This document shows positions 5,776-59,491 of a DNA stretch of 64,000 nucleotides, one piece after another. A program made the position numbers and the translations under genes. The stretch lies in assembly GCA_963674945.2 (NCBI GenBank), contig CAXXWQ010000004.1, positions 864,001 to 928,000 of the forward strand, read 5' to 3'. The stretch comes from an uncultured Desulfosarcina sp. GTDB taxonomy: Bacteria > Desulfobacterota > Desulfobacteria > Desulfobacterales > Desulfosarcinaceae. Under the pieces are notes generated by a model that saw only the letters and a program-made list of their open reading frames with translations, was not told the DNA's origin and made no database searches. Position 1 is the stretch's first letter. Each line of letters begins with the position of its first letter.

Positions 5776-5920
5776 GGTCATATGTGACCACCGGTTGAAT
5801 ATGACCCTTTTTTGATGACGGTCAAAGCCGGCTCGCAATCCATGGTTGAATCAATTTTACTTAAATATCGCAATGATGGGGTATTGCCGTTGGTTTTTGA
5901 AACCTGGCACAAAGATTGAA
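5776..5920 (+). promoter_or_regulatory. Sigma54 promoter module 1 (tandem UAS + IHF-like box + -24/-12)
   Basis: GGTCATATGTGACC-acc-GGTTGAATATGACC (5776-5806); TAAATATCGCAATGAT (5862-5877); CTGGCACAAAGATTGAA with GG 5906-7 and GA 5918-9. Confidence 0.8.
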
Positions 5921-6197
5921 AATCCATCAATTAGAAAATATCAGCACGACGATTTCCGTTAGCGTTATTTTTCATCTTCCGATACGCGATGGCGCTTTTC
6001 TTGAACCATTGCCGACCGAGGCATCACCGCCGTCTGACGTTCGCGATGCCTTCATTCTCAAATTCATTTCCTCGTTGGCCCGACAATAGAGCCGTCAATC
6101 TTTAACCGGTGGAGAGTTTAAATAAGTTCAGAAAAAAGCCCAATTGGTCTTTTACAAGAGAACTTCATCACAACAGTTATTCAACAGGAGGTCTACC

Positions 6198-6377
6198 ATG
6201 AAATCAAGCACCCAGGACAAGGCAGAAGGCAAGTGGCACAAAGTGAAGGGTAAGATCAAGCAGGTCGCCGGAAAAGCACTCGGGAACCGTGACCTGGAAG
6301 CCGAAGGCAAGGCCGAAAATGTTGACGGGAAGGTTCGGGAAAAGATCGGCGAGATAAAGGACGTCGTAGATAAGTAA
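6198..6377 (+). CDS. CsbD-family general stress protein
   Basis: AGGAGG RBS; MKSSTQDKAEGKWHKVKGKIKQVAGKALGNRDLEAEGKAE. Confidence 0.9.
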   Translation: MKSSTQDKAEGKWHKVKGKIKQVAGKALGNRDLEAEGKAENVDGKVREKIGEIKDVVDK

Positions 6378-6427
6378 ACATGGACGCCTGTCAGAAGAAT
6401 CTGATGGCGTTAAGAAAGGAGGCCGCC

Positions 6428-6577
6428 ATGCTTTGGACCATATTTGTGATTCTTTTAGTACTTTGGGGGTTGGGATTGATGACCGGGACCACGTTGGGGG
6501 GCGCGATCCATGCCCTGCTGGTCATCGCCATTATAGTAATACTGATCCAGGTGCTTCAAGGACGAAGACGGGCGTAA
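6428..6577 (+). CDS. Small membrane protein (lmo0937-like family)
   Basis: AGGAGG RBS; MLWTIFVILLVLWGLGLMTGTTLGGAIHALLVIAIIVILIQVLQGRR. Confidence 0.85.
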   Translation: MLWTIFVILLVLWGLGLMTGTTLGGAIHALLVIAIIVILIQVLQGRRRA

Positions 6578-6612
6578 CCCGTTTGACCTTCGCCAGACAA
6601 GGCGAGCTATTT

Positions 6613-6684
6613 AAAATAGCGGTCGAAATCACTCGCACTGTCAAGGGGGTCGAATCCGTCAAGAATGATCTAATCGTCAAGTAG
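6613..6684 (+). pseudogene. C-terminal relic of a BON-domain gene
   Basis: KIAVEITRTVKGVESVKNDLIVK* parallels the end of the next gene (RAMEITHSVKDVKSVENDLVVK) but has no N-terminus. Confidence 0.65.
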
Positions 6685-6740
6685 TTGACCATTATTCTTA
6701 CTTTACTCAATTATGCATCGTTCGCAAAAGGAGATTGAAA

Positions 6741-55908: not shown

Positions 55909-55965
55909 GAGAGGGTGATGTTGAAGAAATCCAAAAAAAACTAATAATTGAAAAGGAAACTAGAA

Positions 55966-57588
55966 ATGGCGGCAAAAGAGATAAAATACGGTACAAAGGC
56001 AAGGGCGAAGATGATGAAAGGAGTAGATGCCATGGCCGACGCGGTCATGGTGACCCTTGGGCCCAAGGGTCGCAATGTCCTCATCAATCAATCCTGGGGT
56101 TCTCCTAAACTTACCAAAGACGGCGTCACCGTCGCCAAGGAGATCGAACTGGAAGACCGGTTCGAAAACATGGGTGCACAGATGGTCAAGGAAGCGGCTT
56201 CAACGACGTCCGACGAAGCCGGAGACGGTACCACCACGGCAACTGTCCTGGCCCGGGCCATCTATCGTGAGGGTGCCAAACTCGCTGCGGCGGGGTTGAA
56301 TCCCATGTCCATCAAACGGGGCATGGACAAGGCAGTTGAATTGGTGGTGGAAGAATTGAAAAAGATGTCCAAGCCGACTGAGGACAAAAAAGATATCGCC
56401 CAGGTCGGAGCCATCTCGGCAAACAACGATCCTACGATTGGCGACCTGATTGCAGAGGCCATGGAAAAAGTGGGCAAGGAGGGCGTGATAACGGTGGAAG
56501 AAGCCAAGGTCATGGAGACGACGCTGAAGGTCGTTGAAGGATTGCAGTTTGACCGCGGCTACCTGAGCCCCTACTTTGTTACCGACCCGGAGAAGATGGC
56601 GGTTCATCTGGATGAGCCTTATATCCTTATGCATGAGGGAACGATCCGTACGATGCGGGATCTGCTTCCTATTTTGGAGCAGGTTGCGAAAACCGGCAAG
56701 CCCATCCTGATTTTAGCGGAAGATGTGACCGGCGAGGCGTTGACCACCATGGTGGTCAACAAACTGAGGGGAAGCTTGCATTGCGCGGCGGTCAAGAGCC
56801 CCGGCTTTGGTGAAAACCGCAAGGGTACGCTTGAAGATATTGCCATCCTGACTGGCGGCCGGGTGATCAGTGAGGATTTGGGCGTCAAATTGGAGACAGT
56901 ATCCCTGGAGGACCTGGGCACGGCCAAACGGATTACGGTAGAAAAGGACAATACGACGATCATCGATGGGGGTGGGGATCGCAATGCCCTGAAGGGAAGG
57001 ATCAAACAGCTCCGGGCGCAAATCGAAGCGACCACCAGCAATTACGACAAGGAACGGCTACAGGGCCGCCTGGCGAAATTGAGCGGGGGGGTGGCCGTCA
57101 TCAATGTGGGTGCTGCGACGGAGACGGAAATGAAAGAGAAAAAAGACCGAGTCGAGGATGCCCTCAATGCCACGCGTGCCGCCGTGGAGGAAGGTATCGT
57201 TCCCGGAGGCGGCGTCGCTTATATACGCGCCATGAAGGTGCTTGATTCCGCCCGATTCCCCAATGAAGAGCAGCTTGGCGTCAACCTTATTCAACGTGCC
57301 CTCGAAGAGCCGGTGCGACAGATTGCCGACAATGCCGGTTTTGAGGGCGCCGTGGTAATCCAGCACGTTAAGGACGGAGAGGGGAGTTTTGGATTCAATG
57401 CCGAAACCGAGATTTATGAAGACCTTATGCAGGCCGGCATCGTGGATCCGACCAAGGTTTCCCGATTGGCACTTCAACATGCCGCGTCCGTTGCCGGCCT
57501 TTTCATGACCACGGAAGCGATGATTGCGGATAAGCCTAAAAAAAGGAAATCCGCGGAGCCTGACATGCCCCCTGAGGATATGTATTAA
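55966..57588 (+). CDS. groL: Chaperonin GroEL paralog (no adjacent groES)
   Basis: [42 protein letters not shown]. Confidence 0.96.
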
Positions 57589-57616
57589 TTTCCACTCCCC
57601 TAATCTTCGAATTTAT

Positions 57617-57664
57617 CCATGTTCACCATAGAACCAAACGGTTTTCTCCATCTGGTGAACATGG
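57617..57664 (+). terminator. Hairpin after groEL
   Basis: Perfect 12-bp stem CCATGTTCACCA / TGGTGAACATGG with a T-rich run shortly after. Confidence 0.5.
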
Positions 57665-57857
57665 CTCCTTGTTTTTCCGCCACCGGCTTCCGAAATTCCC
57701 TTGCCCTGGTTGCGTTCACCAAAAAAATAGAATAAAATAAAAAACTCATCATGGATAACCCGCAACTTCTTAAAAAAGCTGCCTGACTCGAAGGACCTGT
57801 TTTTTTAGGTGCAAACATACTACGCGACCAAGCATACGGATAGCGCGGAATAGACAA

Positions 57858-59339
57858 ATGGATAAAACCTTTCTGGAAATTTTTAACAGCATCCTGGCTT
57901 CGATACGAGAGCCGATACTGGTTCTCGATTCCGACCTGAACGTCGTAAGGGCCAATCATTCTTTCTACCACACCTTCAATGTGAACCCCGGACAGACAGA
58001 AGGGGTCTTGGTTTATGATCTCGGCAACCGGCAATGGGATATCCCCGAACTGAGAGAATTACTTGAAAAAATACTCCCTCACAATACCAAATTCCATGAT
58101 TTTGAGGTGGATCACCATTTCGAGACCATCGGCCGAAAGATCATGCATCTGAATGCCCGGCGGATTTACAACGAAGCAAACCAGACACAGCTGATTCTAT
58201 TGGCCATCGAGGATGTGACGGAGCGTGAATATTACAAAAGAAATCTTGAGGACATGGTTCAAAAGAGAACCGCCGAACTCAGCGTAGCCCGGGAGGAGGC
58301 GGAAAACAGCAAACATCTGGCCGAAACCGCCCTCGCTGAAATAAAGCAGCTAAAAGACCAACTTGAAGCCGAGAGGGCCTATCTTCAGGAAGAGATCAGA
58401 CTGGAATTCAACCATGAGAACATTGTCGGCCAAAGCAACGAAATCAAATATGTGTTTTACAAGGTCGAGCAAATCGCAGGCACGGATACCAATGTTCTGG
58501 TTCTCGGCGAAACCGGAACAGGCAAAGAGCTGGTGGCGCGAGCGATTCACGGATTGAGCTCGCGCAAGGATCGGGCTCTGGTGAAAATGAACTGTGCCGC
58601 GCTGCCTTCAAACCTCATTGAAAGTGAGCTTTTCGGCCATGAGAAAGGTGCCTTTACCAATGCACATTCTAGACGGCTTGGACGATTCGAGATCGCCAAT
58701 GGCACGACCCTTTTTCTGGATGAAATCGGCGAGCTGCCCCTGGATTTGCAGCCCAAGCTGCTTCAGGTGATCGAGACCGGCGAGTTTGAGCGCCTGGGCA
58801 GTTCAGATACGATAAAAGTCGATGTGCGCATCATTGCCGCCACCAATCGTAATTTGGAAGCGGAGGTCCGCAGGGGAACGTTCCGGGAGGATCTGTGGTA
58901 CCGGCTGAATATTTTTCCGATTACCATGCCGCCGCTCAGGGAGCGTAGGGAAGACATTCCTTTGCTGGTCAATTATTTTATGGATAAGATTTCAAAAAGA
59001 CTTGGAAAATCAATCGCCGTGGTTCCGGTGAATGTAATGGACGCGTTGCGCAACTATTATTGGCCCGGCAATATCCGCGAACTTGAAAATGTCCTCGAGC
59101 GGGCGGTGATCAACTCATCAGGTTCCAAGCTGCATCTGGTGGATGAACTGAAAAAACCGAATAAAGATTTAGCCACGGCGGATCGGACCCTTGCGGACGT
59201 GGAGCGAGAGTATATCCTCCGTGTGCTGGAACAGACCCACTGGAAAGTCAGCGGCAACAACAGTGCGTCTGAAATTCTCGGCCTCGACCGCAGCACCTTG
59301 CGTGCCCGCATGCGAAAGCATGATATCCACAAACCATAA
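57858..59339 (+). CDS. PAS-domain sigma54-dependent enhancer-binding protein (Fis-type HTH)
   Basis: PAS, coil, [23 protein letters not shown] (GAFTGA variant), [31 protein letters not shown]. Confidence 0.95.
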
Positions 59340-59345
59340 AATAGT

Positions 59346-59491
59346 GGCCAAATATGATCAATGGTCATATGCGGCCAATCTTATTATCTCCTTTTGCTCT
59401 GCCACCTTCATCTGCTCGATTTTTATTTTCTATTAAATCAGATCAATACAGTTAATTCTCGGTATCTACCAAACCCGGCATGAACCTTGAT
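59346..59491 (+). promoter_or_regulatory. Sigma54 promoter module 5 (directly after the activator gene)
   Basis: GGCCAAATATGATC-aat-GGTCATATGCGGCC (59346-59376); ATTAAATCAGATCAAT (59432-59447); CCGGCATGAACCTTGA with GG 59477-8 and GA 59489-90. Confidence 0.72.

Follow-up and report, generated by a model that had tools for sequence, protein, structure and literature searches.

The sigma-54 regulons of Desulfovibrio vulgaris Hildenborough were rebuilt by comparative genomics (Kazakov et al. 2015, PMC4641369), and most of them comprise 1-4 operons. They likewise include one-component PAS activators encoded beside their target promoters, the arrangement that we describe here in a 64,000-nucleotide stretch of DNA (hereafter the window) from an uncultured Desulfosarcina sp. 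(contig CAXXWQ010000004.1, positions 864,001 to 928,000). Five copies of a sigma-54-type promoter module lie in the window and a sixth lies to its left, within a gene island that also encodes an enhancer-binding protein at 57858. Judging from the sequence comparisons presented below, this activator probably switches on a general-stress or dormancy-type gene set through the six predicted promoters. To our knowledge, the organisation of a broad stress or dormancy response in Desulfobacterales sulfate reducers has not been described.

OrpR (DVU2106), likewise a PAS activator working with integration host factor (IHF) and sigma-54 in a sulfate reducer, has two target operons, against six promoters here; its PAS domain needs three cysteines, which serve a 4Fe-4S cluster, and deletion of that domain results in constitutive activity (PMC8359166). 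The activator of the window has no cysteine in its first 245 residues and the OrpR operator GGGCGYRTTTTGCGCCC has no match in the island at up to 2 mismatches, so that identity with the orp regulon was rejected. We take the two 4Fe-4S P-loop ATPases encoded behind module 3 to resemble Orp3/Orp4. The "general stress" entry of PMC4641369, DVU3305, belongs to the receiver-type activators and has sites such as TGTTGCAAAAAACAACG, unlike what is found here, and neither ATATGACC nor GGTCATAT nor TATGACC occurs in any of the 5 supplementary files of that paper, the motif logos of its Fig. 2 standing outside this comparison.

The best NCBIfam match for the AAA+ and helix-turn-helix (HTH) part of the activator is FhlA, the formate hydrogenlyase activator (388.6 bits), far under the cut-off of 830. 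This match begins at residue 137, and the N-terminus of the activator is a PAS domain. The N-terminus of FhlA consists of GAF domains. The FhlA enhancer CATTTCGTACGAAATG (PMC4987338) also differs from the operator described here, and no hydrogenase genes were found among the conserved targets.

In its output genes (CsbD, BON/OsmY, YtxH, GlsB/YeaQ and ClsB) the regulon resembles the general stress regulons of RpoS, SigB and EcfG. Genes for osmY-like BON proteins, clsB, ytxH, ymgE/yeaQ and the lmo0937 family depend on RpoS or SigB. Those regulons use a dedicated sigma-70-family factor, whereas sigma-54 with an ATP-driven activator is predicted here; in the present genome rpoN is over its cut-off and no rpoS is, SigB and EcfG not having been searched for. 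In Sphingopyxis, csbD is a direct target of the EcfG general stress response (PMC7083833). The Burkholderia cenocepacia lxa locus and the mycobacterial DosR regulon are likewise large gene clusters in which one motif recurs upstream of the genes, and the present locus shares with them Hsp20, PfkB, phospholipid-binding proteins, an ATP-dependent Zn protease and Usp (PMC3721108). The lxa motif TGA-N6-TCA, however, is of the Fnr/Anr type, in contrast to two GGTCATATATGACC boxes with sigma-54 promoters; lxa has six Usp genes against one Usp fragment here; and its induction by low oxygen was measured (PMC3721108).

An earlier note on this DNA did not recognise the operator from any described regulon, and GGTCATATATGACC was not found in the full-text papers searched, nor was any paper on a CsbD/sigma-54 stress regulon of sulfate reducers; RegPrecise and subscription journals lay outside both searches.

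Promoter modules and their predicted activator

The modules of the window and the activator gene are the following:

5776..5919, plus strand: module 1 (operator pair 5776-5806, WATC 5866, sigma-54 element 5904-5919), with a predicted transcription start at ~5931
24318..24464, plus strand: module 2 (operator pair 24318-24348, WATC 24409, sigma-54 element 24449-24464)
41771..41916, plus strand: module 3 (operator pair 41771-41801, WATC 41861, sigma-54 element 41901-41916)
53979..54124, plus strand: module 4 (operator pair 53979-54009, WATC 54070, sigma-54 element 54109-54124)
59346..59490, plus strand: module 5 (operator pair 59346-59376, WATC 59436, sigma-54 element 59475-59490)
57858..59339, plus strand: enhancer-binding protein of 493 amino acids (aa), with PAS_4, coiled coil, AAA+ and Fis-type HTH

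The five paired 14-bp palindromes with a 3-bp gap, first pointed out in the earlier note, were all found again at the same positions. Its distances from box-pair centre to the second G (116, 119, 118, 118 and 117 bp) were reproduced, and its GG-N10-GA element was seen in every module (CTGGCACAAAGATTGA, CTGGCACAAAAATTGA, CTGGTACAAAAATTGA, CTGGCACAAAGATTGA and CCGGCATGAACCTTGA, in order). The WATC-core box that it placed before the GG, which is IHF-like, is present too. The core itself begins 40-42 bp ahead of the first G, and the 44-46 bp of the earlier note fits the start of an A/T run that precedes the core. The modules thus combine a paired palindromic enhancer 116-119 bp from the promoter, within the range of about 80-150 bp expected of such enhancers, with the -24/-12 element of sigma-54 promoters, having GG-N10-GA in place of GG-N10-GC; scans for sigma-70 promoters gave matches at chance level only. 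A strong terminator-like hairpin (5699-5739) lies just 5' of module 1. Between the atpA stop and module 2 there is a second sigma-54-like element, TTGGCACGATATTTGA, at 24288-24303, with no operator upstream, which is perhaps a relic.

With a matrix built from the ten window boxes, one further pair was found in the 7.08-Mb genome, at C4:850403, with a score of 33.7 although it took no part in building the matrix; the next best score was 17.4. This pair belongs to the sixth module (G000:C4:850403), located 13.6 kb left of the window and having a sigma-54 element of its own at a distance of 116 bp. When the matrix was derived solely from sites of other genomes, the same six pairs were recovered, with scores from 22.8 (module 2, the weakest copy) to 40.3, the next best being 8.4; in five block-shuffled genomes the maximum pair score with that matrix was 14.4. 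Because the six pairs score far above both the genome's next best and the shuffled genomes, the operator repeat is not due to chance. All six modules are confined to one 73-kb stretch around the activator, with none elsewhere in the 7.08 Mb. What the earlier note had called an island-wide regulon of five promoters has six predicted promoters here and is not peculiar to the island. Among single-box matches genome-wide there was also an unrelated dispersed repeat, GGCCATATTTGGCC then TGGAAAAGCTTTT, in about 12 copies (e.g., C2:515771, C3:1276411 and C4:2112834 of G000), probably a small repeat or transposon end.

The same architecture is found in relatives. In 80 stretches from 40 genomes the operator consensus is GGTCATATATGACC, with box spacers of 3 bp in 110 pairs and 4 bp in 10, and no other spacer of 0-11 bp. 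A sigma-54 element lies 113-121 bp away in 104 sites, with an A/T-rich AATCAA-like peak near -43, and the best match to the IHF consensus falls at -43/-42 in 51 of them. Across >100 sites, conservation reaches 67-99% at the positions of the boxes and 94-100% in the GG and TTG columns. Since the stretches were partly picked by a pattern that demanded the promoter, the unbiased figure is that of loci fetched by protein, 26 of 31 of which have a sigma-54 element 115-120 bp beyond the operator. At the -12 position, 79% of the 104 aligned sites carry A and 10% carry C; we dropped the idea that GA is special to this regulon, since it is also the commonest -12 form among genome-wide consensus matches in the present genome (23/63). 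In G265 (C2:27720-27978), one operator pair has sigma-54 elements on both sides and would serve divergent promoters.

The earlier note had proposed that the protein at 57858 binds these boxes. We followed operator and activator across 300 genomes of the order and 290 further genomes of the phylum outside it, searching the paired-operator pattern with one mismatch allowed. Within the order the pattern occurs in 92/300 genomes (reversed-pattern control, 3/301), and in 74 genomes a match to the C-terminal 66 residues of the activator was obtained at E <=1e-17. The distribution of the motif is indeed linked to the activator: the operator is present in 69 of the 74 HTH-bearing genomes against 23 of the 226 others, at a cut-off set after viewing the list and leaving out G058, G235 and G289; at E 1e-13, which takes in all 77 HTH matches, the figures are 70/77 and 22/223. 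Moreover, the operator lies just downstream of the gene in 27 of the 31 protein-fetched activator loci, and it is found in none of 78 loci of other enhancer-binding proteins. In the window, as the earlier note had said, the activator stop comes just before module 5: it ends at 59339, 6 bp before the module, whose position behind the activator gene is the one kept in most orthologous loci. Outside the order, three genomes have the HTH at the 1e-17 level, with consensus-like sites in G519 and G582; the HTH is present without an operator site in G455, a site without an HTH match in G534, and seven more single pattern matches are chance-like in appearance. On the strength of this co-occurrence, and of the site directly behind its gene, the 57858 protein likely binds the paired GGTCATATATGACC-type palindromes, and we regard it as very probably the regulator of the operator regulon.

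The activator's AAA+ and HTH domains (PF00158 and PF02954) have conserved Walker A/B motifs, arginine fingers and HTH, and the recognition helix, L[DNE]RSTLRAR, varies hardly at all within the activator clade. No other protein of the genome has this HTH (next tblastn match <=48%); among named genomes, the most similar full-length proteins come from Desulfosarcina (86%) and Desulfobacteraceae (77%). The N-termini of 41 relatives vary around the conserved core: PAS_4 in 26, PAS_3 in 9, receiver in 2 and other in 4, as assigned by sequence signature with 16 proteins spot-checked with Pfam. In a tree with four paralogues as long-branch outgroups, from which rows of <400 aa or without the helix were left out, eight of the nine PAS_3 forms make up one supported clade spanning five families, and the activator of this genome joins two proteins from family f58 (100/97), apart from the two that represent its own family.

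The PAS region lacks cysteines (the first is residue 246) and membrane segments, and for these reasons it is predicted not to be an Fe-S sensor of the OrpR type. It had no match among solved structures by sequence, and an Atlas search gave generic PAS clusters only. The PAS of a PAS-GGDEF protein at 9286-10197 is 50% identical to that of the activator, making this protein a possible shared input or partner. Among the plus-strand terminator-like sites listed, none falls between module 4 and the activator gene, and G229 and G281 have their activator downstream of a same-direction operator. Read-through from module 4 into the activator is possible, and so is positive feedback.

Genes of the predicted regulon

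Behind the modules we found the following genes:

6198-6377, plus strand: csbD, first gene behind module 1
6428-6577, plus strand: lmo0937-family membrane protein, behind module 1
6735-7148, plus strand: BON/OsmY-like protein, behind module 1, the genome's only BON match
7179-7379, plus strand: second csbD, behind module 1
7407-8858, plus strand: OmpA-domain protein, behind module 1
within 9286..24276, plus strand: PAS-GGDEF protein, acetate-CoA ligase/GNAT fusion, rhodanese, two sulfur-transport proteins, UbiB-like kinase, and alternate (N-type) ATPase from atpD to atpA
24273..26906, plus strand: cassette between atpA and atpG, with module 2, a 29-aa membrane open reading frame (ORF), YtxH, a 92-aa ORF and an AI-2E transporter
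24562-24651, plus strand: the 29-aa membrane ORF of the module-2 cassette
24835-25233, plus strand: YtxH of the module-2 cassette, the only one in the genome
within 27015..41732, plus strand: atpG, DUF2254, Kup, GapN-like dehydrogenase, CbpA/CbpM, NhaA, pyruvate kinase, gene fragments, AAA ATPase and a TrhA/HlyIII-family protein
within 42001..53897, plus strand: two 4Fe-4S P-loop ATPases, Usp fragment, gpmA, class I aldolase, B12 radical SAM, PtsP-like, GapN-like and PfkB, behind module 3
54493..57588, plus strand: pyk and groEL, behind module 4
59679-60002, plus strand: ABM-domain protein, behind module 5
60150-60398, plus strand: GlsB/YeaQ/YmgE protein, behind module 5, the genome's only Transgly_assoc match
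within 59679..63743, plus strand: two GT4 glycosyltransferases, behind module 5
at and past the window's edge, plus strand: two GH130-family genes, after the GT4 genes of module 5
C4:850403-866069 (locus L082): behind the sixth copy, B12 radical SAM, hflK, hflC, ftsH, Hsp20, clsB, primase-like gene and glucan phosphorylase

The genes of 9286..24276 may be read from module 1 and those of 27015..41732 from module 2. Every match of the genome to CsbD (two) and to BON, GlsB and YtxH (one each) lies behind a module, and ClsB is over its cut-off behind the sixth copy. The target list of the earlier note includes stress proteins but does not name the first genes behind copies 1, 2 and 5, which are small and of stress type (csbD, the lmo0937 family, ytxH, ABM and glsB/yeaQ). 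The Fe-S ATPases and glycolysis genes that it also listed do lie behind copies 3 and 4, but they are rare in the regulons of relatives, occurring in 1-3 of the 41 clustered genomes, this one included: in the clustering, the Fe-S ATPases, gpmA and NhaA stand by themselves, and pyk, aldolase and pfkB are joined by one or two relatives. Given this rarity, the Fe-S ATPases and the glycolysis genes are local additions to the target set.

The activator itself is the commonest family in the clustered genomes (38/41; the next family, 26/41). Downstream of sites in 40 other genomes we found ABM in 21, a 92-100 aa unknown in 17, radical SAM in 16, FtsH in 15, ClsB-like in 9, and HflK, BON and GT4 in 8 each; these counts are lower bounds, being limited to fetched stretches and missing ORFs of <60 aa. 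From the CsbD, BON, YtxH and GlsB genes of this genome, together with the conserved ABM, radical SAM, FtsH/HflKC, ClsB and GT4/GH130, the conserved core is probably a general-stress or dormancy programme.

Other genes near the sites deserve mention. The 92-100 aa protein, which has no family (L082:10956-11255), is a regulon member in 19 genomes, and a stand-alone primase-like CHC2/Toprim protein (L082:15179-16459) in 11. A 997-aa CheB-CheR-PAS fusion follows the genes of the sixth copy and runs into the window; a fused CheB-CheR is near sites in only 4/41 genomes, and was dropped as a fixed partner. Two 133-aa proteins (29371-29772 and 46864-47265) are 89% identical and occur near sites in 4 genomes, the copy scanned having no Pfam or NCBIfam match. 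In G255, an operator and sigma-54 element (L161:7553-12953, contig C32) precede kaiC-kaiB-kaiB, a 115-aa ORF and a relative of the activator whose reading frame gave no HTH match, followed by csbD and small membrane genes.

Assembly of the island

All recognisable genes in C4 850.7-933.0 kb are on the plus strand, and the G+C content of this region is 49-56%, against 45-49% in its flanks, where an integrase and repeated insertion-like DNA are found. Window positions 5776-6577, from the operator start, are 83% identical to G244, and the hflK/hflC genes of the sixth-copy block 93%. Positions 24273-26214, from the end of atpA, show 88-92% nucleotide identity with G255, of another family, in which the counterpart of the module-2 cassette comes after an AsmA gene. 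The identity of rpoB to both genomes is only 71.7%. The contrast between cassettes 83-93% identical to those of other families and rpoB at ~72% supports a recent transfer of cassettes with their promoter between families.

We read the island as a mosaic. The module-2 cassette separates atpG from atpA in the N-type F1F0 ATPase operon (18287-27911); a second atpD (68%) lies on C1. Duplicated gapN-like, pyk, pfkB and gpmA pieces indicate internal rearrangement. Broken pieces at 37965-39597 comprise a truncated gpmA and the N-terminal half of pfkB fused to a GNAT half, the latter being a copy from the acetate-CoA ligase at 10432.

Alternative readings and significance

The promoter mechanism itself is textbook: dimers of the enhancer-binding protein occupy the two boxes and assemble into oligomers, which remodel the sigma-54 closed complex at the expense of ATP, while IHF loops the DNA. 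Here, the 57858 protein on its paired GGTCATATATGACC-type palindromes, together with a DNA-bending protein at the IHF-like box, would open the six sigma-54 promoters. By analogy with OrpR, the PAS domain would keep the ATPase inactive until a cue of stress or growth arrest appears in the cytoplasm. That this cue is energy or growth limitation is a tentative and rather doubtful suggestion, and the weakest step.

Several observations weigh against this reading. The sigma-54 contact loop is GAFTNA here but GAFTGA in the orthologue consensus, and none of the 17 HU/IHF-family matches in the genome is over the himA cut-off. The genomes compared are related by kinship, so the operator and HTH counts are not independent. 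Five HTH-positive genomes lack the strict pattern, one of them having a degenerate site. CsbD occurs in 31/75 activator-bearing genomes (74 and G024) but also in 32/225 without the activator, so the association is an enrichment and not an exclusive link; in 6 of the 14 activator-bearing genomes examined the best csbD copy has no operator or matching promoter within 1.5 kb upstream. Given these csbD data, the regulon is not the order's only stress route. To this must be added the at least 59 enhancer-binding proteins of the genome and the 23 genomes of the order with the pattern but no HTH match, some with 2-5 sites (five in G002, three each in G244 and G098, and also G272 and G214). A full-length search of these five found no clade member, the best match (66%, in G244) having a different helix and falling outside the clade; their assemblies are incomplete or fragmented.

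The last two points would also be expected if another protein, a second enhancer-binding protein or a repressor, bound the operator alone or as well, the 57858 gene merely travelling with the cassettes. We consider this very unlikely, as the activator is the only family present in 38 of the 41 clustered genomes and the site stays behind its gene while upstream neighbours change; several of the pattern-only matches (G088, G102, G219, G289 and G291) are chance-like. Even less credible, indeed highly improbable, is that the repeats are leftovers of duplicated or transferred DNA, alike by descent and without present regulatory function. The island does contain duplicated and broken genes, and some copies are more similar in their spacer DNA than shuffled sequences are (z up to 7.8), but spacers between the elements are only 50-60% identical, in contrast to the conservation of the boxes and of the GG and TTG columns, and the 113-121 bp spacing is held. 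Furthermore, copy 5 keeps all three elements although its spacer is little more similar to those of the other copies than shuffled sequence is (z -0.1 to 2.4).

The same activator and operator might instead respond to a single specific cue, for instance salt, pH or damage to the envelope. Membrane and envelope genes are abundant in the conserved core (FtsH, ClsB-like, HflK and GT4 in the counts above), and candidate genes include Kup, NhaA, the N-type ATPase, cardiolipin synthase, FtsH/HflKC and GT4/GH130, with ion transporters added in this genome. CsbD, YtxH, GlsB, BON, Hsp20 and GroEL, on the other hand, span several stress types, and the orthologues swap sensor domains, which fits a shared output with different inputs. 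We therefore hold a single specific cue to be unlikely, and favour the general-stress or dormancy-type programme under the 57858 activator.

This programme may be grouping several uncharacterised proteins, namely ABM, the DUF4070 radical SAM, the 92-100 aa protein and the GT4/GH130 cluster. The analysis yields a named activator, an operator, predicted starts and a target list, and its predictions are testable in the cultured Desulfosarcina ovata subsp. sediminis (DSCO28_37310, DSCO28_14490) and D. variabilis. The regulon would have been assembled from transferred promoter-bearing cassettes, growing by horizontal gain of cassettes that bring their own promoter module, of which the module-2 cassette between atpA and atpG would be an example. 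The case is evenly balanced for a wider view, in which the Desulfobacterales have a portable general-stress or dormancy system that relies on sigma-54 in place of a stress sigma factor and is made up of one activator core, interchangeable sensors and a fixed 145-bp enhancer-IHF-promoter module, with module-bearing cassettes passing between families and joining the regulon on arrival.

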